A DNA stretch of 64,000 nucleotides from positions 238,417 through 302,416 of the forward strand of contig WARW01000022.1 in NCBI GenBank assembly GCA_013387215.1, given 5' to 3'. The notes under the pieces are model-generated. The model was not told where the DNA came from, made no database searches, and worked only from the letters and a program-made list of their open reading frames with translations. Below, piece after piece: positions 11,534 through 63,982 of the stretch (the stretch's first letter is position 1; each line of letters begins with the position of its first letter). Position numbers and translations under genes: made by a program. The DNA comes from Patescibacteria group bacterium. GTDB taxonomy: Bacteria; Patescibacteriota; Microgenomatia; UBA12405.

Positions 11534-11978
11534 ATAGCGGAAAAGTGGCGGGTCCCCCAGAGGGGGGTAATTAATTTATTAAAACAGCACGCAGGTCTAG
11601 AAGTTACAATAGAATGTTACTCCTAAGGTTTATGATCCTTAGTTTCGCGTCAGATGGGTACTCAAGGTTGACACTGTGGTCGCAAAGACTATTCACCGAT
11701 AAGGATACACACTGGTTGACTCTATATTTGTCTTGCATATCGACAATAGGGTCAAGACAGAGACTTTCCGTTCCCACAGACCCGTTGTACACACTCAGTC
11801 CTATTTTCCAACCTCTACTGGACCAATAATTGAATACCCTGCATTCTATTGTTTCCCCCTCGTCATTCTTGTACACCACGGTTGCATCTTTGCCCCCTTC
11901 GATATTAGTGTTCATCAAGTCCATGAGGCTCTCCTTTGCTTGCAACCTGCGTGCTGTTTTTTCCGTATTTTCCGCTAT
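11534..11978. repeat. Nested inverted repeats enclosing ORF (unit A)
   Basis: ATAGCGGAAAA 11534-11544 pairs with 11968-11978. AAAACAGCACGCAGGT 11581-11596 pairs with 11945-11960. Both are perfect. Confidence 0.9.
11604..11924 (-). CDS. Hypothetical protein (unit A cargo)
   Basis: ORF with AAAGGAGAG SD upstream of ATG 11924. Confidence 0.6.
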   Translation of the reverse strand: MDLMNTNIEGGKDATVVYKNDEGETIECRVFNYWSSRGWKIGLSVYNGSVGTESLCLDPIVDMQDKYRVNQCVSLSVNSLCDHSVNLEYPSDAKLRIINLRSNILL

Positions 11979-11989
11979 TTAAAAGAACT
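11979..11989 (-). promoter_or_regulatory. boxA-like motif AGTTCTTTTAA
   Basis: Directly precedes the 5' arm. TATAAT lies further upstream near 12027-12032. Confidence 0.6.
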
Positions 11990-12118
11990 GTTTGCATATT
12001 CTAGGAATTAAAGGGCAGCTAAAGCCATTATAGAATAATGCAACTATCATTTTATGAATAATTTTTATGATGTATATTACAAACATGTAAGAATACGGTA
12101 AGATAGGGATTTAGTATC

Positions 12119-12806
12119 AACATAGCGAAAAGAGGGTCCCCAGAAGGGGTGTAATTTAACCTTAAGCACGGCACGCAGACAAAAAATCAGTTAAGTCTTT
12201 CAACCAGACAACTTCCTTCCTGAGGATAAGTAAACAAAACAGTCTTATCCTCCATGGATAAGGTGATAACATAGAAATCCACCTTGAAGTCGGATGACGG
12301 GTTGACAACTTTTTTTTGGGTCACAGTTGATTCATCAACAGCATCATAAGAGATAAGCCAGTCGTTTCCAACTGAAGTCTCAGGGAAATTGGCCAGGCCA
12401 ATCATATACTTTCCATTTTTGTCTGATTCGACTTTAGCTTTATAGCCGGGAGGCACTTTGCAAGTACCATTGGTTACAGGGGCTGGCTTAGTGACGATTC
12501 TAGTTGCTTGGATGTAATGCTGCTGAGTTGGAACCGAGGTTGGATTGGATTCATAAACCATGGCTGAAGCGGTGCGGGCTGTTTTAGGGCTTGGGTTCAT
12601 GAGCAGTAAAAATGCTGCAACAACTGCCGTGATAAATACGAAGATGGGAACCAGAAACTTAGCTTTCATTAGTCCAGAATCCTTTCTATTTATGGGTTAG
12701 ATTACTTGAATAGTCTGCGTGCCGTGCCGGAAGAGAAAACAAAAGATAAGGATTTATCCTCTATTTTCTCTTTCGGAAGGCCGCAAACTGGTCTTTTCGC
12801 TATGTT
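12119..12806. repeat. Nested inverted repeats enclosing ORF (unit B)
   Basis: AACATAGCGAAAAGA 12119-12133 pairs with 12792-12806. GCACGGCACGCAGAC 12166-12180 pairs with 12713-12727. Both are perfect 15 bp. Confidence 0.9.
12187..12669 (-). CDS. Hypothetical secreted/membrane-anchored protein (unit B cargo)
   Basis: N-terminal hydrophobic helix, AGAAAGGA SD. Confidence 0.7.
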   Translation of the reverse strand: MKAKFLVPIFVFITAVVAAFLLLMNPSPKTARTASAMVYESNPTSVPTQQHYIQATRIVTKPAPVTNGTCKVPPGYKAKVESDKNGKYMIGLANFPETSVGNDWLISYDAVDESTVTQKKVVNPSSDFKVDFYVITLSMEDKTVLFTYPQEGSCLVERLN

Positions 12807-12813
12807 AAAGAAC
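12804..12813 (-). promoter_or_regulatory. boxA-like motif GTTCTTTAAC preceded by hairpin
   Basis: Matches rrn boxA. Upstream hairpin ATTTAGG-ATTTTATGC-CCTAAAT. Confidence 0.65.
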
Positions 12814-13124
12814 GGATAATAAGCATGATTTAGGGCATAAAATCCTAAATTGGCTTATATGATATATTGTAACATATATTACAGGATAGTCAATATATAA
12901 ACAGTTGGTTTAAATTCAAAATAATAGCGGAAAGAATGGACTATTTTAGTATATTTGCTGGCGAACGGAAGTCACATTTTTCCGCCATTTATATTGTTTT
13001 TAGCCTTAAATCCATTTGGTGGCCGCTTGTGACCAGAATGAAGAGGTATCAAACAATTCAGTCTAGAAAGAAAAATATAGGGTTAGATTAAGATTGAGCA
13101 ATAATTCAGTAAGATTAAGTTATC

Positions 13125-14006
13125 TTAGATACTTAAAGAAGATGCAAATGAAAGGCTTGTGTGATCGTTAGGTTTTAGTTGCCTAATAAATATTTTCTCT
13201 GATTTTAAGTTTTTCTTTACTGTTGAATTAGTTACTGTTCCGAATTTTATATGATAATTAATTTTATTGATTTCACAAAATTTGGAAACTATTTCAGCAC
13301 ATTCATTATAAAAATTCTTGTAATCCCTATACTCCGCGACAGCTGAGTTATAATTTAACCTTCCAAAAACAATTTTATCTACAAAGGAAACTTTTTCTAA
13401 TATTTCTAATAAATTTTGTTTAACTAAATTTGGTGTTGGATATGGTTCCATACTTACCCAAGTCTTTAATCCTGACTCATGAAGTCTTTTTAAAGTTTTT
13501 ATTCTTTTTAGAAATGGTGATGCTTTCGGTTCAAATATGGATCTAAATTTTTCATTCAAAGAAACTATTGTGATTCCGTATTCATTTTTATTACTATATT
13601 TTTTTGTATCTATTAAATCTTTTGGATAAACACCTTTTGTTAAAACAGTACATCGGATTTTATCTTTGTTCAGTCTTGCAATTACTTTTAACGTCATTTC
13701 TTCAACCTCTGGCTGTTCATACATAAACGGATCAGTACTAAAACAAAGGTGTACAAATTTAATCTTATCTTTAAGTTTTGGTATTTCTTTATCTAATAAC
13801 TCAATTGCATTTGCAACAATTTTTGGTTTAATCCAATCTTGATAATTTTTAATTACACCACATCTCTTCTTCATCATCATTGCATAGCAAGGATACATAC
13901 ACCCATGAGAACATCCTTCAACATGATTCAAGCAATAATCTGCATATTCGACTCCACTTTTATAAAGTAAAGATTTTCTGTAAATCTTCTGCAATTTCTG
14001 TTTCAC
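13125..14006 (-). CDS. Radical SAM protein, SplB/DUF5131-like
   Basis: GCSHGCMYPCYA three-Cys motif, FSTDPF, WVSMEP. Confidence 0.8.
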   Translation of the reverse strand: MKQKLQKIYRKSLLYKSGVEYADYCLNHVEGCSHGCMYPCYAMMMKKRCGVIKNYQDWIKPKIVANAIELLDKEIPKLKDKIKFVHLCFSTDPFMYEQPEVEEMTLKVIARLNKDKIRCTVLTKGVYPKDLIDTKKYSNKNEYGITIVSLNEKFRSIFEPKASPFLKRIKTLKRLHESGLKTWVSMEPYPTPNLVKQNLLEILEKVSFVDKIVFGRLNYNSAVAEYRDYKNFYNECAEIVSKFCEINKINYHIKFGTVTNSTVKKNLKSEKIFIRQLKPNDHTSLSFASSLSI

Positions 14007-14085
14007 TAGATTAGTTTAGACAATTTTAATTAAAAGGTCAAAGGTGTAATATATAACTCATTAAATAAGTTATTATTATTACGAC

Positions 14086-28482: not shown

Positions 28483-28522
28483 AAAAAAGGTGGTAAAAAC
28501 CATTAAAGATTTGTACCACCTT
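28483..28522 (-). terminator. Intrinsic terminator of unit C
   Basis: AAGGTGGTA/TACCACCTT stem followed by U-tract. Confidence 0.75.
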
Positions 28523-28542
28523 GGCAGAAAATTACAGAAAAG

Positions 28543-29037
28543 TTAAATTTGGCTTAAACAGTCAAAAATGAACTGGACAATGAGTTCTAGAGTTTTTTCC
28601 AGATCAGCGCCAGCAAGGTTTATAAGCCTAAAAGTTTTTGTGATTTCAGCGAATTTAAAAACGACAGTTTCTGAATCGGAATAAATCTTAAGAACTCCTT
28701 TTCCGTAAAGTGATATAGCACCCAAATCGAGACAATAATACCTGCCAAATACATATTCAATAATCTCAAAATTAAAGGTTTTATCTTCGCAAACATATGC
28801 GTCGGTTTTATCGAGTATCTCAGTTCTTTGATCTTTCATTTTGTCAATAAAATACTTCTTACCTGGATCAACATCTTTGGATTCAAGAGGATAACCGCAG
28901 TTGAGGAAGTCAACCATGGTTTCAAGAGCCTCCCGGGCATAGATACATCCAAGTATTTCTTTACCTTTCTGAGCACTTGCCACATTATTCTGATAGCTTT
29001 TTTCTATAAGCATAACTAATTTGCTTATGTCTGACAT
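28543..29037 (-). CDS. Hypothetical protein (unit C cargo)
   Basis: 164 aa ORF, GGAAAGG SD-like, flanked by complementary arms 28529-28544 and 29047-29063. Confidence 0.7.
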   Translation of the reverse strand: MSDISKLVMLIEKSYQNNVASAQKGKEILGCIYAREALETMVDFLNCGYPLESKDVDPGKKYFIDKMKDQRTEILDKTDAYVCEDKTFNFEIIEYVFGRYYCLDLGAISLYGKGVLKIYSDSETVVFKFAEITKTFRLINLAGADLEKTLELIVQFIFDCLSQI

Positions 29038-29060
29038 TTATTTCACAACCTTTCCTGTAA

Positions 29061-29104
29061 TTTAAAGTACGCGAGTATTATATAGGTTATTTTTTTTAAG
29101 TCAA
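29061..29104 (-). promoter_or_regulatory. sigma70 promoter plus boxA-like GTACTTTAAA
   Basis: TTGACT 29099-29104, TATAAT 29077-29082, motif 29061-29070. Confidence 0.65.
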
Positions 29105-29399: not shown

Positions 29400-31184
29400 T
29401 TAGACTTCGATAACTAATGGCAATACCATTGGCTGGCGGCCGGTTTTTTGATAGATTATATCTTCAATATGGGCCTGGACTTCTTCACGAATAAAGTCCA
29501 TGTTGGCTGGAGTGCTAGTAGATTCGTTGAACTTATTAGCAACTTCCTGTTTAAGGAAATTCATCAGTTCAGTGTTTTCTTTCATGAAAACGAAACCTCG
29601 GCTTAAGATAACTGGATCTTTAACTAGAGCACCTGACTCACGATTTATGAGCATGACCACAGAGAACATTCCATCTTCAGCTAATAATTTTCGATCGCGA
29701 AGAACGGTAGCACCAACATCACCGACTCCAAGACCATCAATTAAGACTTTACGAAGAGAAATGTGATAATTTGTGTCGTAGGTGCCGTTATTATAGAAAG
29801 TAGCCGTGCCATCATAATCAGGGAAAATCACCTGATCTTCGGCAAAACCAAGAGTTTTTGCCATGGTTTGGTAGCTTTTCAAATGGCGGAAGTTACCACC
29901 AATCGGCAAAAGGAATTTTGGCTGTAAAAGTTCAATCAAAAGAGCGTGCTCTTTTTGGTAGCCGTGACCAGAAACATGGAGCTCCTCTTTTTCGCCATAA
30001 ACAACTTCAGCGCCCATTTTGGATAAAATATCAATCATATTATTGATATTGGAAGTGGTGCCTGGAATGTAGTCTGGTGAAGAGAAGATCACTTTATCAC
30101 CCGATTTAACTTTGACCCGGTGCTTACCCATAACCATTTTGCTTAAAGCAGAATCTGGTTGTCCAGCAAAACCGGCAACTAAGAATAATAATTTATTATC
30201 TGGGAAGTTTTTGACACGTTCGATCGGAATAATGTCAGAATCATTGAGAGTTAAATATCCCAAATCTTTGGCAATACCGATAGCTCTGTCAACAGAAAAA
30301 CCAACAATAACAATTTTTCGGCCCACACTTTTACCGTAATCGATAGCTTGAGTCCAGCGAACAATGTTGCTGGAAATTGAAGTGACAAAAACCCGGCCTT
30401 TAGCAGAAACTATTTCTTTCTTGAAATTTTCAGCAATAGATCTTTCTGATGGCGAAAAACCTTCGTGATCAGAACCAAGACTGTCAGACATTAAAGCAAT
30501 AACATTTTTCTCGCCAACTCTGGCAATGTGTTGATAATCAACAGGTTTACCATCAAGCGGAAAAACGTCAAATTTAAAATCAGAACCATGGTAGAAAACA
30601 CCAAGCGGAGTGGTAATAGCAAAATGGAAAGTGTCAGGAATTGAGTGTGTGACTCGGACTGGATCAACAGTAAAGACGCCTTTGATTATCGGTTCAGCAC
30701 TATCATAAACATTTATTGAGGCTCTAATATTGGTTTCAGCAAGTTTTGCTTCAATAAAAGCAGCCGCAAGTTTTGGAGCGTAAACAGGGATATTAGTGCC
30801 CAGAATCGGCAAAATAAATCTGATGGCGCCAATGTGATCTTCGTGACCGTGAGTAATAAAAATACCCATAATTCGGTCTTTTTTATCTTGAAGATAATGA
30901 GTGTCTGGAATTTGAAGATCGACACCAAAAGCATCTTCTTCAGGAAAACCAACACCACAATCAACGATAATTATTTGACTTTTTGATTGATCGCCATTGG
31001 GGATGAACTCATAAACAAACATGTTTTGAGTAACATCGCCAAAACCTCCAAGAGAACTGATCCTGACTGCGTCACGACCGTTTTTAAACTCTCTGGGTTT
31101 ATTTTTCATATTAAAATTTTGTGGCATTACAGCGCCATCTACTGGTTTTTTCGTAGTATCTCTACGTTGATTTTTAATCATCAT
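29400..31184 (-). CDS. rnj: Ribonuclease J
   Basis: THGHEDHIGA, HSIPD, HVSGH. Confidence 0.93.
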   Translation of the reverse strand: MMIKNQRRDTTKKPVDGAVMPQNFNMKNKPREFKNGRDAVRISSLGGFGDVTQNMFVYEFIPNGDQSKSQIIIVDCGVGFPEEDAFGVDLQIPDTHYLQDKKDRIMGIFITHGHEDHIGAIRFILPILGTNIPVYAPKLAAAFIEAKLAETNIRASINVYDSAEPIIKGVFTVDPVRVTHSIPDTFHFAITTPLGVFYHGSDFKFDVFPLDGKPVDYQHIARVGEKNVIALMSDSLGSDHEGFSPSERSIAENFKKEIVSAKGRVFVTSISSNIVRWTQAIDYGKSVGRKIVIVGFSVDRAIGIAKDLGYLTLNDSDIIPIERVKNFPDNKLLFLVAGFAGQPDSALSKMVMGKHRVKVKSGDKVIFSSPDYIPGTTSNINNMIDILSKMGAEVVYGEKEELHVSGHGYQKEHALLIELLQPKFLLPIGGNFRHLKSYQTMAKTLGFAEDQVIFPDYDGTATFYNNGTYDTNYHISLRKVLIDGLGVGDVGATVLRDRKLLAEDGMFSVVMLINRESGALVKDPVILSRGFVFMKENTELMNFLKQEVANKFNESTSTPANMDFIREEVQAHIEDIIYQKTGRQPMVLPLVIEV

Positions 31185-40101: not shown

Positions 40102-41106
40102 TTACTCTTCCTTAGCAGAAGCTTCTGAACTTTGAGTAATTTTGATCTCTAGACCAACCAATTGGCCAGCAAGACGAACGTTTTCGCCACCGCCACCAAT
40201 AGCCAAAGCTAATTGATTTTCAGGTACAGATACAGTAGCGATTTTGTTGGTAACCGAAATTACCTTAACATTTTGTGCTGGAGATAGTGCTTGAATAATA
40301 AATTGGTTGATATTTTTGGAGAAAAGAACCACATCAACTTTTTCTTCGTTAGGAAGTTCGCTTAAAACAGATTGGATGCGGGAACCTTTTTGACCGATAC
40401 AAGATCCCACTGGATCAACTCCAGCTTGAGTGGAAGATACGGCAATTTTAGTTCTTTCACCAGGTGATCTGGCGATTCTTTCGATTTTTACAGTGTTATT
40501 ACCTACTTCAGGCACTTCGCGAGCGAATAGCTCTTCAACAAAGGCAGAATCTCTTCTGGAAAGAATGATTTCGCTTTTTCCAGTTTCATCACGAAGGATT
40601 CTTTGAAGTAAAAATAATTTTTTAGCGCCAAGAGGAAGGATTTCACCTCGGATTTGTTCTTCTTTAGGACAAATACCTTCAGTTTTACCAACACCGACAA
40701 CAGCTTTGAAAGGATCAGTTTTTAAAACTATGCCGTTAATGAGAGTGCCAACTTTTTTGGCATATTCAGAAACAACAGCTTCTTTTTCTGCTTCGTGGAT
40801 TTTTTGATCGATAACTTGTTTAGCAGTTTGAGCAGCAATACGACCGAAACCTGGAGGGGTGACGTCGGATTTTTTCTTGTCTTCAATTTTGTAAACTCGG
40901 AATGAACCAGTTTCTGGAGACAATTCAACTGTAAATTGGTCTTCTTCATCAATAATGATTCCGTGTTCTTTTTGATCTCTTTTGTAGGCAGAAATTAAAC
41001 CGAATTCAATTGAATCTAAGATTAATTGCACATCAATATTGCGCTCGCCAGCGATCTGGGCTACGGCTACAGCAAATTCTGTTTTTGGTAGTTTTTTTAA
41101 ATCCAT
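40102..41106 (-). CDS. nusA: Transcription factor NusA
   Basis: FGRIAAQTAKQ, EVPE, DPVGSCIG..G.R. Confidence 0.95.
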   Translation of the reverse strand: MDLKKLPKTEFAVAVAQIAGERNIDVQLILDSIEFGLISAYKRDQKEHGIIIDEEDQFTVELSPETGSFRVYKIEDKKKSDVTPPGFGRIAAQTAKQVIDQKIHEAEKEAVVSEYAKKVGTLINGIVLKTDPFKAVVGVGKTEGICPKEEQIRGEILPLGAKKLFLLQRILRDETGKSEIILSRRDSAFVEELFAREVPEVGNNTVKIERIARSPGERTKIAVSSTQAGVDPVGSCIGQKGSRIQSVLSELPNEEKVDVVLFSKNINQFIIQALSPAQNVKVISVTNKIATVSVPENQLALAIGGGGENVRLAGQLVGLEIKITQSSEASAKEE

Positions 41107-41222
41107 ATTTTTCTCCTGCAAATTAAAAATGGGGCGATACTTCACCCCATTCAAAACTTACTTATATTAAACTGAGTTATTATACCAGAAGAGTCGGTCC
41201 TATTACAATTCTTTAGGAAGCA

Positions 41223-45351: not shown

Positions 45352-45395
45352 AAAAAGCCGATAGTGTTTTAGTGTGATACTAAAGCATATCGGCT
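45352..45395 (-). terminator. Terminator of unit D
   Basis: AGCCGATA/TATCGGCT stem plus U-tract. Confidence 0.75.
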
Positions 45396-45418
45396 CGGAT
45401 AATCAGGGCTTTTGAAAA

Positions 45419-45682
45419 TTAAAAAATATTTTGAGGGGTAACAATTTTGCCAGTTTCGATTGCTTGACGATATCTTGCCTCATCTGAGGATAAAATCCAC
45501 AGACCGTGAGAAAAGTTTGAACCGTAATACTGTTTGATTCCTTGATCTTCAATCTGTTTCAAAAAATTGGCAATGTCGAGGCGATCTTGGTCGATTCCAC
45601 CAGGATAAAAAGAAAAAATGCAGGTAGTATTTTTGCGTCTGATTTCTTTGAGACTAATACCATTAAGGCAAAACTGATTCAT
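45419..45682 (-). CDS. Hypothetical protein (unit D)
   Basis: ORF with AAAGGGAG SD. Confidence 0.6.
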   Translation of the reverse strand: MNQFCLNGISLKEIRRKNTTCIFSFYPGGIDQDRLDIANFLKQIEDQGIKQYYGSNFSHGLWILSSDEARYRQAIETGKIVTPQNIF

Positions 45683-45712
45683 AAGAAAACAACTCCCTTT
45701 CGTTTTTTATTT

Positions 45713-46003
45713 TTATAGATTATTGAGATCGATTTTTTTCAATTTTAGTTGACTATCTTTGGAAACTACCTGAAAAAGTGTATCCGTTAAAGTGACGGTG
45801 TCTTCTTCAAAAATAGAGAAAATCAAGTTGTTGTCTAAATAAAAATCTACAGATGATTCGCCAAAAGCAACATCAATTCGGGTTTTTCCTGCAATATTAG
45901 TACAGATATTTTGACTGCCAGTTAAGGTTAGATTAAAAGGTGTTTCGACAAATCTTTTCAACAATAGGTAGTTTGTGGCCATTAAAGTTGCCCATCGAGA
46001 CAT
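45713..46003 (-). CDS. Hypothetical protein (unit D)
   Basis: ORF with TAAGGAGGTGA SD. Confidence 0.65.
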   Translation of the reverse strand: MSRWATLMATNYLLLKRFVETPFNLTLTGSQNICTNIAGKTRIDVAFGESSVDFYLDNNLIFSIFEEDTVTLTDTLFQVVSKDSQLKLKKIDLNNL

Positions 46004-46025: not shown

Positions 46026-46083
46026 CAAAAGCCTGATTATTAAAGAACAAAAATTGTCTATCTTGCGTATAAAATAGCAATTT
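46026..46083 (-). promoter_or_regulatory. Hairpin + boxA-like GTTCTTTAA + 5' arm (unit D)
   Basis: boxA 46040-46048. Arm 46026-46040 is complementary to 45399-45414 with one bulge. Confidence 0.75.
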
Positions 46084-46110: not shown

Positions 46111-46163
46111 AAAAAAAATGCCGACTGGAGTTTGAATATTAATATTCAAAACCTATCGGCATT
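46111..46163 (-). terminator. Terminator of unit E
   Basis: AATGCCGA/TCGGCATT long stem plus U-tract. Confidence 0.75.
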
Positions 46164-46203
46164 GTGATAATTTATCAACTTAAATGGAAAGAAAAATATC
46201 GTA

Positions 46204-46590
46204 TTACGAAAAAAACTGTCGGCCAGCATAAAGAATAGAGTTTTGAATCGCATAATCAATTCCAGCAATCTGTAGCAAAAAACTGCTTTCTAATGCAGGA
46301 AGCTCGACATTGTTGAACTTAAGGACGATTATGGCTGGATAATTAAGTTTCTTTAGATCTACGGGTTTGACGTTTTTCCTGAGGGCTTTTTTGATGCAAT
46401 CAAAATAATCATACGAAACCGAAATTTTGTTTCTTTCGTCCAGATTGTAGTCCTGACCTGCTGAATACAAAAGAGATTTTATTTTTTCCGGATTCAGTTT
46501 GACAGCATCTTTGTTTGGCATTCCTAATACCACTATCTCTAAGAGATTAGGGTTGTTTAGACTGTCTTTGGGAACATTATGACCTGTCAT
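46204..46590 (-). CDS. Hypothetical protein (unit E)
   Basis: AAAGGAGGTG SD before ATG 46590. Confidence 0.65.
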   Translation of the reverse strand: MTGHNVPKDSLNNPNLLEIVVLGMPNKDAVKLNPEKIKSLLYSAGQDYNLDERNKISVSYDYFDCIKKALRKNVKPVDLKKLNYPAIIVLKFNNVELPALESSFLLQIAGIDYAIQNSILYAGRQFFS

Positions 46591-46604
46591 ATTAACACCT
46601 CCTT

Positions 46605-46700
46605 TCATCGATACTGACCGGCTATTAAGCAAGCACCATAAATCAAGATTGAGCCTATCAGTAAAAATATCCCAGCGATTAGAAATATTCTCCGTTTCAC
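46605..46700 (-). CDS. 31 aa hydrophobic peptide (unit E)
   Basis: GTG start after AAGGGAG; MKRRIFLIAGIFLLIGSILIYGACLIAGQYR. Confidence 0.55.
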   Translation of the reverse strand: MKRRIFLIAGIFLLIGSILIYGACLIAGQYR

Positions 46701-46704
46701 AAGA

Positions 46705-46839
46705 TCAACTCCCTTCATTTCTCTTTTCCAATGTGACTTTTTCCGGAATATAGGCAAAAAATAATCCGACAGAGTACACTTGAAAACTGGAACACAACAA
46801 AACTAAAACCAACAAACAAGACAAAATCTTTCGATTCAT
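46705..46839 (-). CDS. 44 aa hydrophobic peptide (unit E)
   Basis: AAAGGAGG SD; MNRKILSCLLVLVLLCSSFQVYSVGLFFAYIPEKVTLEKRNEGS. Confidence 0.6.
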   Translation of the reverse strand: MNRKILSCLLVLVLLCSSFQVYSVGLFFAYIPEKVTLEKRNEGS

Positions 46840-46860: not shown

Positions 46861-46932
46861 ATTTAGTTGATAGATTTTAAAAGAACGACTAATAAATTAT
46901 TATTCTTTGCAAAATTAAAGAATTGATTTATT
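46861..46932 (-). promoter_or_regulatory. Hairpin + boxA-like GTTCTTTTAA + 5' arm (unit E)
   Basis: boxA 46877-46886. Arm 46861-46876 is complementary to 46169-46185. Confidence 0.7.
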
Positions 46933-47064
46933 TTTGGTTAATTGCCAAAGAAAAAAAGTCAAAAAAACTGCTTTTCTTTTGTAATTAAAATATAAAATCC
47001 GTAAAACTAATGTGTGCCCTAAAAAGGGAGAGAATTGAGCAGAAGCCCAATCCTCTTTTTGTTT

Positions 47065-47565
47065 TCAGTTCAAAAACTGATCAAGGTGGTTTAACAAGTG
47101 GTCAAGCTTCAACAACACTGTAGGAATTTGATCGGAATATTTAAGTTCAAGGCAAAACTCGACAACATAAGCATCAGTAATAATGCGATCGATGTCTTGA
47201 GTCAAAGTCTCATTCATCTTTTGAAGATATTTTTGATCTTCTTTTCCGGTTCGACGACGAAGCCAAGATTCAAAATTTTTGACTTCATCATCCCTTTCAT
47301 ATTGAGGAAATAATTCCCAAGCCGCAGCCGTTCTTCTAGAGAATAATCCCGGATTTCCAGTCATATCCAAAAGAGCATCAATTGTTGATAAACGATAATT
47401 GTTTATTTCTTCCTCTGCCAATGGATTACTCTCGATTTTAACGTAATAATCGGCAAGTATAGCAACTGCTTTATTGAGCATCTCGTCGGTTATTTTAGTA
47501 AAACCTATTCTTTTGGAAAAGAAATCAACCAGATATAAATAAGATTCTGAAATATTTGTCAACAT
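47065..47565 (-). CDS. Hypothetical helical protein (unit F)
   Basis: TAAGGAG SD, 166 aa. Confidence 0.7.
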   Translation of the reverse strand: MLTNISESYLYLVDFFSKRIGFTKITDEMLNKAVAILADYYVKIESNPLAEEEINNYRLSTIDALLDMTGNPGLFSRRTAAAWELFPQYERDDEVKNFESWLRRRTGKEDQKYLQKMNETLTQDIDRIITDAYVVEFCLELKYSDQIPTVLLKLDHLLNHLDQFLN

Positions 47566-47637
47566 AAAAAAACACTCCTTATAATTTTTATTTTGAAACT
47601 TTCTACTTATATTTTTCTAATGAGTGTTTATGAAGCG

Positions 47638-47748
47638 TTACCACAATTTATCTAAACCCCAAATCATGAATGTCAAAAACAATGACAAGCCAAATAGGAT
47701 TATTAGCGCAATTTTTTCATTTCGGTTGTATTTTTTAAAATGTTTCAT
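47638..47748 (-). CDS. 36 aa single-TM peptide (unit F)
   Basis: AGAGGTGA SD; MKHFKKYNRNEKIALIILFGLSLFLTFMIWGLDKLW. Confidence 0.6.
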   Translation of the reverse strand: MKHFKKYNRNEKIALIILFGLSLFLTFMIWGLDKLW

Positions 47749-47759
47749 GTTCTCACCTC

Positions 47760-48143
47760 TTAAAATAATGATTTCTGACTCCACTGATTAAAAACAGCAA
47801 GGTCTTCATCACCAAATAAAGCTTGATAACATTCGTTTCTAACCAAAAGAGATTCATCGAGCTCTAAAAAATCCAAAACCCAATAAATCGTTTCGGTTTT
47901 TAGTTTAAAAATAGTGTCTTGAGACTCACGATCATCATAAGTTTTAATGTCGATTCGATGCAGTGTTTTGATTAATGCATCAATTGCTTCGTCCGCTTCT
48001 TGATATTTTTTTAGTCCTAAGTGTTTAGCAAGATATTCCAGCGCGTTTTGATGAGCTTTTGGGAAATAAATTACCTTAAAGTTCTCAGCTCCGCCCATTT
48101 TTTCGATGAGTGTAGAGTAAAACTCCTTTTCGTGATTAGACAT
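47760..48143 (-). CDS. Hypothetical helical protein (unit F)
   Basis: GAGAGGTG SD before ATG 48143. Confidence 0.7.
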   Translation of the reverse strand: MSNHEKEFYSTLIEKMGGAENFKVIYFPKAHQNALEYLAKHLGLKKYQEADEAIDALIKTLHRIDIKTYDDRESQDTIFKLKTETIYWVLDFLELDESLLVRNECYQALFGDEDLAVFNQWSQKSLF

Positions 48144-48200
48144 ATGCAACACCTCTCTTTTTATTCCAAAAATATTTCTATTTTTGGTATGTACACAAAG

Positions 48201-48250
48201 AGTTTTACGGATTTTTAAAGAACAAACCTTTTTTTAAAGCGCTTTGCTTT
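48201..48250 (-). promoter_or_regulatory. Hairpin + boxA-like GTTCTTTAA + 5' arm (unit F)
   Basis: boxA 48215-48223. Arm 48201-48215 is perfectly complementary to 46994-47008. Confidence 0.8.
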
Positions 48251-48645: not shown

Positions 48646-48648
48646 GCT

Positions 48649-51636: not shown

Positions 51637-51640
51637 TGGA

Positions 51641-54847: not shown

Positions 54848-55026
54848 TACCCTATTTTACCAAGCGGAGCTGTATTAGCGCGAATACAATTTGATGACAG
54901 TAACGGCAATGATGACAAAGGAACAAAGCACAATAAGAAAAAATTGATTATTCTCGTCTACTTTCTTTTTATTTTTTTTGGGCATAAATAATTGTAAACA
55001 AACGATTGGTAAAAAACAATGTAAGC

Positions 55027-55075
55027 AAAAAAAATACCCGCCAAGTTGTTTTTATAAAAAAACAATTGGCAGGTT
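55027..55075 (-). terminator. Terminator of unit G
   Basis: ACC.GCCAA/TTGGC.GGT stem plus U-tract. Confidence 0.7.
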
Positions 55076-55084
55076 TGCCTCAAT

Positions 55085-55444
55085 TTATTGGATGATGCGT
55101 TCTATGGTGAATTTGGAAAAATTTGGTTCATTACCCAATAAGGGTTTATAACCTAGAGACATCAAAAGCGGCGCAGAGAGATTGATAATATACCAACGGG
55201 TTTCGGATTGAATAAGGTTGATACCATTGAAAATTTGATCAGCATCGACTTCTATAGTTTCGATTTCGCCCTTTTTTTCAAATACACGATTTTGTATTTG
55301 ACTTATTAAGGCTTTAATTATCTTTTGTGCTTTCTGACAAGTCCCCTGTTCAGTGATCAGCTTGTTGATCTGCTGTTCCCGACTTGTAATTTGGTTTTCA
55401 AAGTAAGAAACGATTTTATTGTCGGAGCTTTCATTTTGGTCCAT
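55085..55444 (-). CDS. Hypothetical protein (unit G)
   Basis: GAAAGGTGG SD before ATG 55444. Confidence 0.65.
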   Translation of the reverse strand: MDQNESSDNKIVSYFENQITSREQQINKLITEQGTCQKAQKIIKALISQIQNRVFEKKGEIETIEVDADQIFNGINLIQSETRWYIINLSAPLLMSLGYKPLLGNEPNFSKFTIERIIQ

Positions 55445-55467
55445 AAAAACCACCTTTCACATTTTAT

Positions 55468-55521
55468 TAAATTGAGATTTAAGGTACAGCGGGATTTTAC
55501 CTTATTTTAGGAAAATGTCAA
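55468..55521 (-). promoter_or_regulatory. Promoter + boxA-like GTACCTTAAA + 5' arm (unit G)
   Basis: TTGACA 55516-55521, TAAAAT 55494-55499, motif 55478-55487. Arm 55468-55476 pairs with 55079-55087. Confidence 0.7.
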
Positions 55522-55525
55522 AAAT

Positions 55526-56257: not shown

Positions 56258-56357
56258 AAATTAATTATGCAATAAATTTAAAATAAAAACACTTTTTGAT
56301 AAAAAAACCCGCTAAAAGCAAAATGTTTAGCGGGTTTGGCCCAGATCCATATAGTTT

Positions 56358-56675
56358 TTAGTAATTACTTATAGTAATAACTTTTTCTTCAAACATTTTA
56401 TGGGGTGTCTGGTAGGGTAAAGAAAGTTGATAATACTTTTTTAAATAATCCTTAATAATAGGAACCACCAGATCATGAAAATTGTCTATTGTCATGTCAC
56501 TTTTAATAAACTGAGAAATTTTAATTTCAACTTTTTTCTTTTCTTCTGTTTTAAAGTTTTCCAGAATAGTTGGAATTATTTCTTTGGCTATGCCAATGAC
56601 ATAGACTTCTCTTTGATGGTCGTTTAAATGAAGGTTAAGGTTATCAAAATAAGTATCCGAATTAGATTTTTCCAA
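56358..56675 (-). CDS. Hypothetical protein (unit H)
   Basis: TTG start with AAAGGAGG SD, terminator 56301-56337. Confidence 0.65.
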   Translation of the reverse strand: MEKSNSDTYFDNLNLHLNDHQREVYVIGIAKEIIPTILENFKTEEKKKVEIKISQFIKSDMTIDNFHDLVVPIIKDYLKKYYQLSLPYQTPHKMFEEKVITISNY

Positions 56676-56701
56676 GATACTCGCCTCCTTTCTTTTGTTT
56701 A

Positions 56702-56772
56702 GTTTAATGTGCCTTATTTAAGCGCTTTTGCTTAAAGTATGGGGATTTTACAGGAATATTTTAGAAAGTCAA
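56702..56772 (-). promoter_or_regulatory. Promoter + hairpin + boxA-like GCACATTAAAC (unit H)
   Basis: TTGACT 56767-56772, TAAAAT 56745-56750, hairpin 56717-56736. Confidence 0.65.
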
Positions 56773-56819
56773 AAAAAACCCGCTAAATTTTTTATTTTTA
56801 GCGAGTAAGGACTCAAAAA

Positions 56820-57179
56820 CTAAGATTGGGGTAGATTAAAATTTATGTAACCATTATAGAATTCGGTTTTTACTTCGATACCAAATTTTGGTTTTAAGAT
56901 TTCTTCGAATTTCAATTTCAAACTTTTTACCGATTCTTGGTCGTAATGGACGTGGGCTATTTTAAAAGCCTCCATCAAATCGACTCGAACTCTTTTGGAA
57001 CCTTTTTTGATTTGTTTCTTGTGAACCAAATCTTCAATGAATGTCGTTAAAAGCCAAATTTGAGAAAGAGACTTATCGGTTTTGCCGTTTTTTTCGCATT
57101 CATCAAGGATTTGTTTTTTTACTTGAGTAATTACGAGTTTGAATTCATTGGGATGAGACAACTTTATTATATTGTCCAT
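56820..57179 (-). CDS. Hypothetical protein (unit I), paralog of unit J cargo
   Basis: GAAAGGTGA SD; IW.....IE......V.VDL..AF shared with J. Confidence 0.7.
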   Translation of the reverse strand: MDNIIKLSHPNEFKLVITQVKKQILDECEKNGKTDKSLSQIWLLTTFIEDLVHKKQIKKGSKRVRVDLMEAFKIAHVHYDQESVKSLKLKFEEILKPKFGIEVKTEFYNGYINFNLPQS

Positions 57180-57213
57180 ATATATCACCTTTCTTTCTTC
57201 TACCTTTATATAT

Positions 57214-57290
57214 TAGTTGTTGAGTTAAAGAGCAATTTTTTGGCGCATTTGCCAGGTGCGTTATTTTAGCCTATTTTTTGGTAATGTCAA
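57214..57290 (-). promoter_or_regulatory. Promoter + boxB-like hairpin + boxA TGCTCTTTAAC + 5' arm (unit I)
   Basis: TTGACA 57285-57290, TAAAAT 57263-57268, hairpin 57241-57254, boxA 57224-57234. Confidence 0.8.
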
Positions 57291-57342
57291 AAAAATACCC
57301 CCAAAAGATTTTTATACTTTTAGAGGTCAAGATCTCAACGCG

Positions 57343-57717
57343 TTAAATAAAAGTAAATTCAAGAATTTTTTTGGGATAATTGATGGTGATTAACATGTCA
57401 TATTTTTGGCAAAGCATGGCTTCAATTTTGTCTTTACATTTTATAGCTAGGGTTGTACTGTAAATTATTCCGGATAGTTCAAAAGCTTTTGCAAGATCGA
57501 CTTGGACAAAATATTGATGTCTAAATAATTTTTTGTGTCTTAACTGAAATTCAATACCATTTATTATCATCCAAATCTTTTCCAATTCTTGAATCGATTC
57601 AACTGATTCTTTTGAGTCGTTTTTCTTTTGTTGATATTCCTTTTGTATATCTGTACAAATATTTAAAAATATTTGTTTCAACTCGACGGCTGAAAATATT
57701 TTTTCAAGTTGTTCCAT
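57343..57717 (-). CDS. Hypothetical protein (unit J)
   Basis: AGTAGGTG SD-like, similar to unit I cargo. Confidence 0.7.
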   Translation of the reverse strand: MEQLEKIFSAVELKQIFLNICTDIQKEYQQKKNDSKESVESIQELEKIWMIINGIEFQLRHKKLFRHQYFVQVDLAKAFELSGIIYSTTLAIKCKDKIEAMLCQKYDMLITINYPKKILEFTFI

Positions 57718-57739
57718 AAAACACCTACTTTCTTTTTGG

Positions 57740-57812
57740 GCGTTGAGTTAAAGAGCGATTTGGCGCGTTTACCAAAGTTGAATGATTTTACATTAGTTCT
57801 GGCCAAAGTCAA
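57740..57812 (-). promoter_or_regulatory. Promoter + boxB-like hairpin + boxA GCTCTTTAAC + 5' arm (unit J)
   Basis: TTGACT 57807-57812, TAAAAT 57785-57790, hairpin 57759-57776, boxA 57747-57756. Confidence 0.8.
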
Positions 57813-57869
57813 AAAAATACCCGTCAAAGATTTTATGACGGGTTAGACCCAAAAAAATTAGAGAAAAAA

Positions 57870-58217
57870 TTAGGTTAACCTAATTCGTATAGTATCTTTT
57901 TCTTTATCAATCGTAATCCAATTACATTTTTCAGTTAAAGTTTCGTCTATCGATGGATAACTTGGACCAGATGCCCGCCTGATCCGACGACAGATATTTT
58001 CCCAGTGAGGTATTTCTACTTCATTCTCACTAATTCTTCTTTTATTAATACGGTTGTCTGACAAGACAGGGATTATAAATCCTAAAAAGAACGCGGCCCA
58101 ACCAGCACTGCAGCATTCTAACTTTAATCTTTCTAAAATAACGGCTTTTTCTTGTCTCTCTTTTTCTAGGGCATCTTTTGAATTTTCAACTTTAGCAGAA
58201 AACAAATCATTAGTCAT
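57870..58217 (-). CDS. Hypothetical protein (unit K)
   Basis: GGGAGGTG SD before ATG 58217. Confidence 0.65.
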   Translation of the reverse strand: MTNDLFSAKVENSKDALEKERQEKAVILERLKLECCSAGWAAFFLGFIIPVLSDNRINKRRISENEVEIPHWENICRRIRRASGPSYPSIDETLTEKCNWITIDKEKDTIRIRLT

Positions 58218-58232
58218 ATTCACACCTCCCAA

Positions 58233-58309
58233 TTCTCTAATTTTAAAAATGTGCAATTTTGGAGCTATTTCCAATTTAGTGATTTTAGCCTAAAATCGGG
58301 AAAAGTCAA
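58233..58309 (-). promoter_or_regulatory. Promoter + hairpin + boxA-like + 5' arm (unit K)
   Basis: TTGACT 58304-58309, TAAAAT 58282-58287, hairpin 58259-58274, TGCACATTTTTAA. Arm 58233-58244 pairs with 57854-57865. Confidence 0.7.
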
Positions 58310-58314
58310 AAGAA

Positions 58315-61686: not shown

Positions 61687-61688
61687 AG

Positions 61689-61991
61689 TTATTTTTTAAT
61701 TGTTGCCACGACTTCAAAATAACCATCTTTAGTTTTAGTGGCAGTTGATAAAGCGTCTTTTTGAGAAAATGATTCCTTTACCTCGTCTTGATGAAAAACG
61801 TTTTTTTGCTCATTAACTCTAAAGGTAGGCTTGATATTTGTAGTATCAGCTTTATTCAGAATATCTAAGTATTCTAGAACTGATTCTAGTTGAGGCAAAT
61901 AAGTTTTCTTTTCGTCATCTGTCAAATCGATTCTAGCCAATTTGGCAATATGATCCAGTTCTTCTGGGGTAATTTTATTGCTTGCAGACAT
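61689..61991 (-). CDS. gatC: Asp/Glu-tRNA amidotransferase subunit C
   Basis: HIAKLARI; position before gatA. Confidence 0.92.
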   Translation of the reverse strand: MSASNKITPEELDHIAKLARIDLTDDEKKTYLPQLESVLEYLDILNKADTTNIKPTFRVNEQKNVFHQDEVKESFSQKDALSTATKTKDGYFEVVATIKK

Positions 61992-62072
61992 AGGTGTATT
62001 TTAGAACATAAGCTCAAAAGACTCCACTTTTAGTTTCAAATTGATCCTTTGTAATTGAAATAAAGGTATGGT

Positions 62073-62161
62073 TATAATGAATACTAGTCTTATTAAAATG
62101 AGTGCTTAAAAAGCTTGAGCATTAGGTTTAATAGTACCTTAAAAAATTTAATTTTATCTGA
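62073..62161 (+). promoter_or_regulatory. -10 + hairpin + boxA-like GTACCTTAAA + 5' arm (unit L)
   Basis: TATAAT 62073-62078, hairpin 62103-62121, motif 62134-62143. Arm 62145-62161 pairs with 62758-62775. Confidence 0.65.
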
Positions 62162-62181
62162 TAAGAAAGGAATATCAGGTT

Positions 62182-62772
62182 ATGGGGAGAGGCACTAAAT
62201 ATCTTATTTTGATGGTGGTGATAGCTTTACTATTCTCACCAATCAAAGTTCTAGCAGAAAATAAAAAAGGAGGTGAAAGCAAAACATTAGTTGAATACTT
62301 GGAATTGAAAACCCCCAATGATTGTGGAAAATTAAATGCCAAAAGATCGGCCGAATTAGTTAATGGTATTGAAATTAATCCTGGCGACACTTTTTCATTT
62401 AATCAAATTGTTGGACAAATCAGCAAAAAACGTGGATTTAGGTGTGGTTTTATAACAATTATTCAAGGAGGAAAGAAAAAAACCTATTATGATGATGGGT
62501 CCAGTATTTGGAGAACGAGCACGGCGATATATCAAGCTGCTTTAGATTTGGGATTGGAAATTACCGAAAGGCATAAAACCTATAAACCTTGTGCATATGC
62601 CAAAATATGCGACAGTGCAGTTGCTGTTTGGGGAGAAGGGCCAGATTCGGATACCTACTTAGACATGAAAATCAAAAATAACAAAGACAAACAAATAAAG
62701 TTTGAAACCTCAGTGGATGATAATGCTCAAATAATAGTAAAGATATTCGAAACTGAATCAGAAAAAAATTGA
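62182..62772 (+). CDS. VanW-like domain secreted protein (divergent)
   Basis: Signal peptide, NG..I.PG.TFSFN..VG....RGF, STA.YQA....GLEI.ERH. Confidence 0.8.
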   Translation: MGRGTKYLILMVVIALLFSPIKVLAENKKGGESKTLVEYLELKTPNDCGKLNAKRSAELVNGIEINPGDTFSFNQIVGQISKKRGFRCGFITIIQGGKKKTYYDDGSSIWRTSTAIYQAALDLGLEITERHKTYKPCAYAKICDSAVAVWGEGPDSDTYLDMKIKNNKDKQIKFETSVDDNAQIIVKIFETESEKN

Positions 62773-62781
62773 ATTTTATCA

Positions 62782-62835
62782 AAAGGGTATTTTGTCGACT
62801 TAATTATCAAGTCTACTTAATGCCCTTTATTTTTT
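62782..62835 (+). terminator. Terminator after first VanW-like gene
   Basis: AAAGGGTATT/AATGCCCTTT stem plus T-tract. Confidence 0.65.
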
Positions 62836-62963
62836 CCCTAAATTTACATCTTGTGTATTGTGGCGTATAATCTCGCCTGTATTAAACATGAAAGGAGCGT
62901 TTGCAGCAAACGAAAACCTGTACATTAAAATCAAATTAGTTGAAGTCGAAAGGGGAGTTTTGT

Positions 62964-63551
62964 ATGAAAAAACCTTTGGTTCTGCTGATTATTTTTACAT
63001 TCAGTCTGATTTTTAGTTTTTCAGTGGTTTTGGCTGAAGACAAGAAATATACGAACGAACTTGTTTTTACCCATACCCTGCAATTATCAAAAAGCATTAA
63101 TAATGTTAATGCCGCAAAAGCTGCAGAATATGTAAATGGTTATATATTGGAACCAGGTGCAATCTTTTCCTATAATTTGGTTGTTGGAAAAAGAACTTGG
63201 GCAAGAGGCTTTAGATATGGATATATGCCGATTACCGATAAAAAGGGCCACATAATAAAAGAGATTAAAGTTGTTGGTTCAGGAGTATGTCGATTTTCTA
63301 CTGCCATGTTTCAAGCTGCGAGAGCATTTGATTTAGAAATCATTGAAAATCATTCTCATAGTTTTGGAGTTGATTATGCCAAGAAGGGCGATGATGCCAC
63401 AGTTAATTGGGGAAATGGCCCAGGGTCAAAAGGATGGCTGGATAATGTTTTTAAAAACACCAAAGATTATTCAATTCTGATCAAATGTTCAGTTAACAAA
63501 AAAAATCTTGTAACAGTTCAGTTCTACAAGATAAATGAATCAGAAAAATAA
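62964..63551 (+). CDS. VanW-like domain secreted protein
   Basis: PG..FSYN..VG, GSGVCRFSTAMFQA, HSHS..V.Y...G.DATV.WG; AAAGGGGAG SD. Confidence 0.85.
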   Translation: MKKPLVLLIIFTFSLIFSFSVVLAEDKKYTNELVFTHTLQLSKSINNVNAAKAAEYVNGYILEPGAIFSYNLVVGKRTWARGFRYGYMPITDKKGHIIKEIKVVGSGVCRFSTAMFQAARAFDLEIIENHSHSFGVDYAKKGDDATVNWGNGPGSKGWLDNVFKNTKDYSILIKCSVNKKNLVTVQFYKINESEK

Positions 63552-63571
63552 TTATGAAAGGTGGTTTTATT

Positions 63572-63736
63572 ATGGAAAACAAGATTCCTTATGATTACAT
63601 GAGAGGAAATATTTCAAGTTATGGTGAATTAAGCGAAGAAACCGCAGGATCAATTTCTCCAAGTTCTTCCGAGACTAATGATGATGACAGAAATAAAGAT
63701 TTTTACCATGACCGTTATACTGGCGGCTGCTGGTAA
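63572..63736 (+). CDS. Small acidic hypothetical peptide
   Basis: GAAAGGTGG SD before ATG 63572, terminator 63753-63799 follows. Confidence 0.5.
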   Translation: MENKIPYDYMRGNISSYGELSEETAGSISPSSSETNDDDRNKDFYHDRYTGGCW

Positions 63737-63781
63737 TATCTTTTTAGCACTTAGGGTGTTTTATTAACTTTTTTAAAGTTT

Positions 63782-63982
63782 TTAAGACGCCCTTTTTTTA
63801 TTTAATGATACTAATTCTCTAAATGCACCTATTGCCGAACCTTCAGGAATTGATAGCGTTTCTTTAATTTTTTTATGGCCGTCTGAGGTTGGTGGAAAAA
63901 AGCGTGAAGCTACTATTGGATCATGTTTATATTCTTTCCCCACTCTCCAATTTGTTTTTTGACAATATTCTTCAACTGTCAT
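63782..63982 (-). CDS. Hypothetical protein (may extend beyond window end)
   Basis: ORF converging on the same terminator. Confidence 0.35.
   Translation of the reverse strand: MTVEEYCQKTNWRVGKEYKHDPIVASRFFPPTSDGHKKIKETLSIPEGSAIGAFRELVSLNKKRAS

Follow-up and report, generated by a model that had tools for sequence, protein, structure and literature searches.

Accessory genes led by a ribosomal RNA-type boxA and enclosed by complementary leader and trailer strands in a genome of Patescibacteria

The window analyzed here is a stretch of 64,000 nucleotides (nt) from a Patescibacteria group bacterium (contig WARW01000022.1; C15:238417-302416 of the genome, designated G000). It contains the core genes rpoBC, nusA, infB, pnp, rnj, dnaK and gatABC, with small genes of no recognized family in between. 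The label of a protein from a genome of the same genus, Candidatus Shapirobacteria, puts the lineage within the Microgenomates group of Patescibacteria. Thirteen units, A to M, have a boxA-like motif in the leader, followed in most of them by a strand (the 5′ arm) that is complementary to a second strand (the 3′ arm) at or beyond the last stop codon (Table 1). On the presumed transcript, the order would be a promoter-like site, often a hairpin with GC at the end of the loop (GC-loop hairpin), boxA, arm, ribosome-binding site and the enclosed genes, termed cargo. The genome comprises 1.31 Mb, is 98.6% complete and consists of contigs with 32 to 38% G+C; 1,322 genes were called with a script of our own. 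Searches of the window with Rfam and ARAGORN returned no RNA-family or tRNA match.

A first-pass annotation of the window had listed 13 arm pairs, all of which were found in place. The pairs of units F, G, J and K and the nested pairs of units A and B (A1, A2, B1 and B2) are perfect, while those of C, D, E, I and L contain one to three mismatches or bulges. Arms were scored by comparing the 19 nt after each intergenic boxA-like motif with its own trailer (that of the following one to three genes), all other trailers of the genome serving as the null distribution. By this test, nine of the 13 units had a P value below 0.05 (A, 0.003; B, 0.003; C, 0.006; D, 0.003; E, 0.014; F, 0.009; G, 0.047; I, 0.005; L, 0.034), units J and K were borderline (0.059 each), and units H and M failed (0.27 and 0.40), in line with their earlier description as having the leader but weak arms. 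Among the proposed sigma-70 promoters, the strongest sites in positions 45200-63999 include those preceding units G, H, I, J, K, L and M, but the total of 68 sites equaled that of shuffled sequences (71.7). In the tandem units K-J-I-H (56745-58309), the U tract of each terminator leads directly into the −35 box of the next unit. The trailers of units A (11534-11596) and B (12119-12180) have in common a small CCCC-loop-GGGG-ACCC hairpin between the nested arms, and a similar hairpin was seen in a trailer from a genome of the same family (L183).

Table 1. Positions of the boxA-led units and of context genes in the window (aa, amino acids; ORF, open reading frame)
Feature	Position	Strand	Description
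Unit A leader	11945..11988	-	boxA 11979-11988; outer 5′ arm 11968-11978; inner 5′ arm 11945-11960
Unit A cargo	11604..11924	-	~106 aa; no Pfam or PHROG family; start uncertain
Unit A trailer	11534..11596	-	inner 3′ arm 11581-11596; small GC hairpin; outer 3′ arm 11534-11544; layout 2, no terminator after
Unit B leader	12713..12813	-	boxA 12805-12813; outer 5′ arm 12792-12806; long leader hairpin; inner 5′ arm 12713-12727
Unit B cargo	12187..12669	-	160 aa; hydrophobic N-terminal segment; no family
Unit B trailer	12119..12180	-	inner 3′ arm 12166-12180; small GC hairpin like that of A; outer 3′ arm 12119-12133; layout 2, no terminator after
Unit C leader	29047..29070	-	boxA 29062-29070 and 5′ arm
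Unit C cargo	28543..29037	-	164 aa; no family
Unit C trailer	28487..28544	-	3′ arm 28529-28544, then terminator-like hairpin 28487-28522; layout 1
Unit D leader	46026..46077	-	GC-loop hairpin 46058-46077; boxA 46040-46048; 5′ arm 46026-46040
Unit D cargo	45419..46003	-	two ORFs, 96 aa (45713-46003) and 87 aa (45419-45682); no family
Unit D trailer	45355..45414	-	3′ arm 45399-45414; terminator-like hairpin 45355-45396
Unit E leader	46861..46886	-	boxA 46877-46886; 5′ arm 46861-46876
Unit E cargo	46204..46839	-	possible 44-aa ORF 46705-46839; 128-aa ORF 46204-46590
Unit E trailer	46117..46185	-	3′ arm 46169-46185; terminator-like hairpin 46117-46163
Unit F leader	48193..48250	-	GC-loop hairpin 48236-48250; boxA 48215-48223; 5′ arm 48193-48215
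Unit F cargo	47065..48143	-	127 aa (47760-48143); 166 aa (47065-47565)
Unit F trailer	46994..47056	-	terminator-like hairpin 47029-47056 precedes 3′ arm 46994-47015; layout 2
Unit G leader	55468..55521	-	promoter-like site 55494-55521; boxA 55479-55487; 5′ arm 55468-55477
Unit G cargo	55085..55444	-	119 aa; no family
Unit G trailer	55024..55087	-	3′ arm 55078-55087; terminator-like hairpin
Unit H	56358..56772	-	promoter-like site 56745-56772; GC-loop hairpin 56717-56736; boxA 56704-56712; 105-aa ORF 56358-56675; arm not significant
Unit I leader	57213..57290	-	promoter-like site 57263-57290; boxA 57225-57233; 5′ arm 57213-57225
Unit I cargo	56820..57179	-	119 aa; no family
Unit I trailer	56778..56823	-	3′ arm 56811-56823; terminator-like hairpin 56778-56806
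Unit J leader	57740..57812	-	promoter-like site 57785-57812; GC-loop hairpin 57759-57776; boxA 57748-57756; 5′ arm 57740-57747
Unit J cargo	57343..57717	-	124 aa; no family
Unit J trailer	57297..57341	-	3′ arm 57334-57341; terminator-like hairpin 57297-57327
Unit K leader	58233..58309	-	promoter-like site 58282-58309; GC-loop hairpin 58259-58274; boxA variant 58243-58254; 5′ arm 58233-58244
Unit K cargo	57870..58217	-	115 aa; no family
Unit K trailer	57797..57865	-	3′ arm 57854-57865, then terminator-like hairpin
Unit L leader	62049..62162	+	promoter-like site 62049-62078; GC-loop hairpin 62101-62123; boxA 62134-62142; 5′ arm 62143-62162
Unit L cargo	62182..62772	+	VanW-like protein, 196 aa
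Unit L trailer	62757..62835	+	3′ arm 62757-62777; terminator-like hairpin 62781-62835
Unit M	62843..63793	+	promoter-like site 62843-62871; GC-loop hairpin 62898-62912; boxA 62920-62928; second VanW-like gene and 54-aa ORF; terminator-like hairpin 63753-63793; arm not significant
nusA	40102..41154	-	machinery, context
RNase J	29400..31184	-	5′-3′ exonuclease, context
PNPase	35152..37368	-	3′-5′ exonuclease, context

Genome wide, complementarity between leader and trailer exceeded that of the controls, as expected from the annotation. With a first, stricter motif and single-gene units, 28 of 62 sites passed, compared with 11 of 293 TTAA anchors lacking boxA and 7 of 62 sites in a same-strand repeat control. 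With a loosened motif, 42 of the 80 intergenic boxA-like sites had P values below 0.05 (27 below 0.01), compared with 2 of 80 and 5 of 80 when the tested stretch was shifted by −37 and +24 nt, respectively. Eight of the 42 sites are window units and 34 lie outside the window; as two pairs have a trailer in common, the distinct units number 40. The loosened test was then fixed and applied to 780 kb of an independent genome of the same genus (G010), where 12 of 28 sites passed and none did so in either of the shifted windows.

The pairing signal of the stricter scan was maximal at the end of boxA and was lost 16 nt further on. The paired stretch began 0 to 3 nt after boxA in 49 of 56 units, also in leaders of more than 100 nt, while leaders without boxA seldom paired with their own trailer (22 of 344, several of these being boxA variants). 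These observations argue against antitermination as the sole role of boxA, a reading in which ordinary stems protect the ends, arise once transcription is over and adjoin boxA as the free 5′ space. This reading draws on the stems forming in plain equilibrium folds without protein and on the many boxA-led genes that have no arm. A significant arm was missing at 38 of the 80 sites, and only 2 of 12 boxA-led loci of the phylum had one (10 did not). As arm-less boxA-led genes are also common in other families, boxA can stand alone. Overall, we regard antitermination alone as quite unlikely.

The annotation had further claimed that the arms differ between units while pairing is kept; in orthologous units, both arms changed together. 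Covariation was judged by swapping arms between orthologues (at most four per unit), and the cognate arms outperformed the swapped arms in all eight comparisons. These involved five gene units, namely, a 3D-domain gene, the VanW unit L, a DUF4230 gene and two units of a PurA-like array; the boxA variant was kept and both arms had changed, as in the orthologues of unit L in G015 and G042. Isolated mismatches in the stems were G-U in 15 cases, A-C in 4 and transversions in 3 (P = 0.02). In full-length folds of units shorter than 1.3 kb, the stem had a probability above 0.5 in 28 of 35 cases, compared with 2 of 35 for an upstream control window, and the stem of unit F was present in both the best and the centroid fold. 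Judged from these sequences, the stem looks like a conserved RNA pairing.

The arms might instead be terminal inverted repeats or recombination sites of DNA-level cassettes around orphan genes, similar to those of integrons, miniature inverted-repeat transposable elements or transposons. The tandem arrays of orphan genes (G to K and D to F) and the approximately 74% likeness of the I, J and K leaders would fit such cassettes. However, the arms have no sequence in common across the genome, change in place in orthologues and favor G-U among isolated mismatches. They also begin at an RNA signal without a mirror image in the trailer, as at most one of the first 4 nt of boxA recurs there in 48 of 56 units, in contrast to a DNA terminal repeat. 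Among the 62 window proteins, none matched an integrase or transposase family, the RVT_1 family was not found in the genome, and the genome-wide search, a motif scan, detected one XerC/D-like protein. In three low-depth DNA data sets of one study, compared as contigs and possibly from the source sample, no joints were listed across positions 44500-63999, a result not counted as evidence. An origin of the arms at the DNA level is, hence, extremely improbable.

Two layouts of the 3′ end were distinguished among 58 units from five genomes, the boundary of 28 nt being set after inspection. In layout 1 (41 units), the 3′ arm lies at the stop codon and a strong hairpin follows in 36 units. In layout 2 (17 units, including A, B and F), the arm lies 30 to 90 nt past the stop codon, with a strong hairpin before it in 12 units and after it in only 2 (P = 6 × 10−8). 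The annotation had described a 3′ arm at or just after the stop codon with a terminator; this holds for layout 1, but the outer 3′ arms of units A, B and F lie approximately 50 to 70 nt past the stop codon, behind a hairpin and with no clear terminator after them, so that arm plus terminator is only one of two layouts. The layout 2 stems were stronger (median of −19.1 kcal/mol versus −14.8 kcal/mol in layout 1), and at least five U's within 8 nt after the 3′ arm were present in 9 of 17 layout 2 units versus 14 of 41 layout 1 units.

The strong hairpin ahead of the arm and the greater stem strength in layout 2 are favorable to an RNase III switch. A Nus-modified polymerase would complete the stem and RNase III would cut it, the messenger RNA (mRNA) being matured like a ribosomal RNA (rRNA) precursor or destroyed; in layout 2, the mRNA would be left open if the first hairpin terminates and would be cut on read-through. 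Destruction of an mRNA after cutting of a stem by RNase III is the basis of lambda sib retroregulation. The stems have a median length of 15 to 18 pairs, about a third of the 16S helix, which is short for a double cut by RNase III. The location of rnc next to nusB, observed at 30 of 30 nusB loci of the order, could also be cited for such a switch but is already explained by rRNA. We consider the switch unlikely.

The motif is the lineage's own rrn boxA, as the 16S leaders of ten genomes of the genus show the same variants as the mRNA units. In G000, the 16S gene (C1:98506-100008) and the 23S-5S genes (C5:7302-10272) are unlinked, and each locus has a boxA-like motif, directly followed by a strand complementary to the trailer, and then a terminator-like hairpin. 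Where trailer sequence was available, the 16S helix of the genus comprised approximately 45 to 50 pairs, starting at boxA. The tRNA-Ala gene upstream of the 23S gene is preceded by a second boxA-like motif. Both nusB and rnc are present, with nusB directly before rnc; rho, nusG, rpsJ and nusA are also encoded in G000, and NusB was found in 150 of 151 genomes of the phylum. Among the nusB-rnc loci inspected (L002:1393-2994 and L006-L034), that of G000 is followed by rpsP-like and KH-like genes, recognized by eye. Three tests capable of refuting the proposal had been set beforehand and could be run: pairing exceeded the controls, the rrn boxA matched, and nusB was present.

A GC-loop hairpin before boxA, also part of the annotation, was detected in 21 of 42 units versus 19 of 399 control leaders, with no such excess for nine other dinucleotides, and in 5 of 12 units of G010; by a strict test, it was found in 7 of the 13 window units. 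The hairpin was missing in 10 of 10 16S leaders of the genus and is, therefore, not simply rrn boxB, and it is only loosely like the AAAAAGC stretch of the Escherichia coli rrnB leader hairpin.

The cargo consists of ORFs with ribosome-binding sites rather than rRNA or tRNA genes, and these are short and accessory; a counterpart was present in the 780 kb of G010 for 3 of 46 cargo genes versus 452 of 1,179 other genes. Outside the window, 10 of 41 cargo proteins had a Pfam match. Among 24 cargo proteins compared with PHROG, none matched. The families named were purM-like, VanW, GH17, 3D domain and permease. A homologue search with the 166-aa protein of unit F returned only the query itself. Five boxA-led paralogous cargo genes (C15:181125, C15:180335, C11:23031, C11:16077 and C11:17535 of G000) have in common a domain of 60 to 90 aa without a Pfam name, and some encode a signal peptide.

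The annotation had also offered silencing as an outcome of the pairing. As a general effect this was not supported, the ribosome-binding site being inside the stem in only 11 of 56 units and outside it in 45. A suhB-like form of silencing would have the Nus loop block translation and the closed stem keep the mRNA off, the genes being foreign or harmful ones that are stored or repressed. The 11 units with a covered ribosome-binding site, the presence of rho and the nearness of boxA to the ribosome-binding site are compatible with this idea. It also has a precedent, since boxA represses the E. coli suhB mRNA and a ParE-like gene (PMC5725501), and a repressive outcome at E. coli suhB is likewise described in PMC12360218. 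On the other hand, the 45 free ribosome-binding sites, the benign appearance of the cargo with assignable families and the pointlessness of a 3′ arm if Rho did the silencing make this interpretation decidedly unlikely.

Six type III hammerhead-like motifs were detected in G000 (C15:180893+, C15:181618+, C1:47614-, C1:45052-, C11:11621- and C11:16861+), and none was detected in the window. An Rfam scan of four of them matched RF00008 below the gathering score (E values of 1e-6 to 0.04), while the two C1 motifs were recognized by pattern and fold only. All six lie 86 to 118 nt past the stop codon of a boxA-led gene, whereas such genes, under a loose motif, account for approximately 159 of 645 trailers, and the predicted cut at C11:16861 falls a few nucleotides beyond the 3′ arm. 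If the ribozymes are active, the trailers that bear them would seem meant to be transcribed past the hairpins and cut as RNA. The units at C15:181010 and C1:47532 lie between two hammerhead-like motifs, as does an orthologous array in G010. A 134-aa gene (C15:181125-181529) sits between two ribozymes, and the stem III strands of the two could pair with each other across the RNA once it is excised. The PurA-like arrays of G010 (C1:139040-144439; L084-L085) and G000 (C1:43573-49416) are orthologous and are split into boxA-arm units by hammerheads; in both, the PurA-like start codon directly follows the second ribozyme. No viral contig had a hammerhead directly followed by boxA.

Units flanked in this way, and the ability of the C15:181010 ends to re-form a full hammerhead stem III, raise the question of circular mRNAs, with the stem joining the cut ends for ligation and units between two hammerheads being excised and closed. 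Such circles are highly improbable. The window has no hammerhead and the genome only six, one G010 ribozyme has an altered core, and RtcB was not found in G000 or G010 and was present in one of five relatives. Circles were also sought from clustered bacterial hammerheads, and none were seen (PMC3088659). A look-up of RNA data sets for positions 54000-63900 listed none, which carries no information on expression.

Beyond G000, the layout was seen in four genomes of the genus (G010, G043, G013 and G014), one of the family (G400) and one of the order (G356). Sporadic cases came from another Patescibacteria record (L111) and from contigs of metagenomes and phages. Sites with P values below 0.05 numbered 2 of 11 in G043, 0 of 5 in G017, 3 of 10 in G400, 1 of 5 in G356 and 0 of 1 in G373. 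In 200-kb samples of four more distant genomes, the numbers were 1 of 5 (G056), 0 of 1 (G148), 0 of 2 (G157) and 1 of 15 (G098, this one being a short tandem repeat). Five genus genomes yielded 2 of 9 usable sites, from 30 loci, and pattern loci from the order, the phylum and all of GTDB yielded 3 of 13, 2 of 12 and 3 of 13, respectively, against a null distribution taken from G000 and, hence, not composition matched. For metagenome loci, 5 of 39 unique usable sites (of 80 loci) passed versus 2 of 39 controls, and for viral loci, 4 of 26 (of 80 loci) passed versus 1 of 26. The bare boxA 11-mer was not more frequent than its reversed control in five genus genomes. The wider spread is weak and uneven, and G000, the largest among the 38 genus genomes listed, has expanded the layout. 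The full succession of boxA, arm, gene or genes, complementary arm and terminator was observed in three viral records (L341, L378 and L379), three metagenome records (L253, L254 and L258) and L111; L254 and L379 look homologous.

As the units copy the boxA-arm geometry of rrn in miniature, we infer the same tether for them. In E. coli, NusB-S10 on boxA loops with the polymerase, SuhB mediating (PMC4807359); according to one proposal, the Nus complex brings the leader strand to its complement (PMC8632103), and insertions that change the spacing behind boxA phenocopy the loss of boxA (PMC10250234). B. subtilis NusB binds its own boxA, an instance of boxA-like RNA outside the Proteobacteria (PMC13753749). 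On balance, an rRNA-type Nus complex probably tethers the 5′ end of these mRNAs, keeps Rho off untranslated RNA and hands over the arm, the mRNA being closed at its 3′ end. By analogy with E. coli and B. subtilis, NusB-S10 on boxA would join NusA and NusG on the polymerase. NusG would thereby be drawn away from ribosome coupling and from Rho, and a foreign, uncoupled mRNA could be made at full length. At the exit channel, the tether may offer the arm for pairing, much as has been suggested for boxC of rRNA, and the 5′ arm would pair with the emerging 3′ arm, as predicted by folding and supported by covariation. This pairing may end the Nus phase of the transcript. In layout 1, a terminator hairpin would act directly after pairing; in layout 2, the polymerase would have passed the hairpin, and the long-range stem, often then followed by U's, may serve as the end signal. 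At six loci, the end would be made by the cut of a hammerhead-like ribozyme. The resulting mRNA would have paired ends, would usually be translatable and would be less open to RNase J and PNPase. The motif, the arms, their position, the covariation and the gene content can be read directly from the DNA, while Nus binding, tethering, antitermination, end formation and the stability of these mRNAs would follow from the likeness to rrn.

Several observations weigh against this model. The boxA motif was loosened once near misses had been seen, and sites without a significant arm are numerous both in G000 and in the phylum, as given above. The swap comparisons are small in number and lack independence, and among purM orthologues the layout is clear only in G000, occurs as a variant in G010 and is lacking in five of six orthologues. 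When all mismatches were counted, the G-U bias was not significant (21 versus 15; P = 0.41), and C-to-T drift on the coding strand could also produce such a bias. The C-over-G skew of Rho targets was not seen in the cargo (P = 0.15), the G+C content of which is slightly above that of other genes. NusB is short (123 aa in G000 and approximately 122 aa in the genus) and matches solved NusB only in its C-terminal part, and SuhB (PF00459) was not found in the 98.6% complete G000. In addition, the known effect of boxA on the E. coli suhB mRNA (PMC5725501 and PMC12360218) and the ParE-like gene (PMC5725501) is repression, the opposite of protection. Of these objections, the missing SuhB and the repression at suhB carry the most weight.

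A unit of this kind would work in the manner of an rrn unit, yet it is distinct from one in cargo, stem length and SuhB. With the rrn leader, whose antitermination complex comprises NusB, S10, NusA, NusG, SuhB and S4 (PMC10250234, PMC4807359 and PMC8632103), it shares the lineage's own boxA motif, a helix starting at boxA, a terminator after the 3′ strand, and the Nus genes and rnc. It differs in having protein cargo, approximately 40 units per genome, stems of approximately 15 to 18 rather than 45 to 50 pairs, a GC-loop hairpin and a second layout without a terminator, with no SuhB found. The rrn helix of the Enterobacteriaceae, a substrate of RNase III with more than 30 pairs (PMC10250234), is also longer than the median of 15 to 18 pairs seen here. 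The boxA mRNAs of gamma-proteobacteria (E. coli suhB, Citrobacter ParE-like, putative prsA and rpsJ) likewise carry boxA in the 5′ leader near the ribosome-binding site, but with 0 to 7 sites per genome, repression and, in the parts of that paper available, no 5′-3′ stem (PMC5725501). In E. coli suhB (L526:243-1136), the strand after boxA had a weak match to a stretch approximately 80 nt past the stop codon, with a score of 9.5 that was reached by 4.5% of control windows. Clustered hammerheads of prophages are also type III motifs between accessory genes and were proposed to cut transcripts into gene-length mRNAs; boxA is absent from the text of that paper (PMC3088659), whereas here a boxA-stem unit may or may not end in a ribozyme, and the window has none.

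Read-through that completes an RNase III stem, or 5′-3′ pairing that controls an mRNA, is known from lambda nut/N (nut/N in PMC8632103) with sib retroregulation, T7 RNase III sites and the hok/aapA type I toxin mRNAs. In the units described here, a hairpin precedes boxA, as it does in rrn, the entire gene is enclosed by the stem, and the ribosome-binding site lies outside most stems; no N-like protein is known here, no search aimed at one having been made. The annotation knew of no description of such an arrangement, and this was borne out by a full-text search of main texts, few of them subscription papers: boxA was described on rRNA, nut sites, CRISPR (clustered regularly interspaced short palindromic repeat) arrays and a few repressed mRNAs, with no boxA-anchored 5′-3′ stem around protein genes, although the 407-site table of PMC5725501 could hold such units. 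The boxA of CRISPR arrays is mentioned in PMC13753749, and a term search of PMC11404451 returned neither boxA nor Patescibacteria.

New here are the genome-wide controlled test, the agreement with the rrn of this lineage, both 3′ layouts, the covariation and the hammerheads behind boxA-led genes. So far, boxA and the Nus complex have been credited with serving rRNA, lambdoid phages, CRISPR arrays and a small set of repressed mRNAs; approximately 40 wrapped genes would make it a general mRNA route and would separate the looping role of Nus from ribosome assembly. Delivery of a 5′ strand by Nus becomes testable with short natural substrates and compensatory variants, in a lineage seemingly without SuhB. 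The units would also offer a sequence rule for accessory transcription units in uncultured bacteria of the candidate phyla radiation (CPR), a context for orphan hammerheads and a compact mRNA-stabilizing part for engineering. A farther-reaching and rather doubtful extension is that Shapirobacteria, other CPR bacteria and phages have a second class of mRNA on the rRNA track. This class would have a tether-dependent long-range terminator, closed-loop mRNAs with the stop beside the start and hammerhead-flanked units ligated into circles, and the boxA-arm wrapper would be a portable license for orphan genes despite Rho.

Two minor observations were made apart from the units. A 305-aa protein encoded next to rpoB (9397-10314 of the window) had weak, below-cutoff matches to Pacifastin and von Willebrand C. 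ARAGORN detected no transfer-messenger RNA in the whole of G000 but 46 tRNAs, among them a tRNA-Ile with the anticodon TAT at C1:128624-128698.

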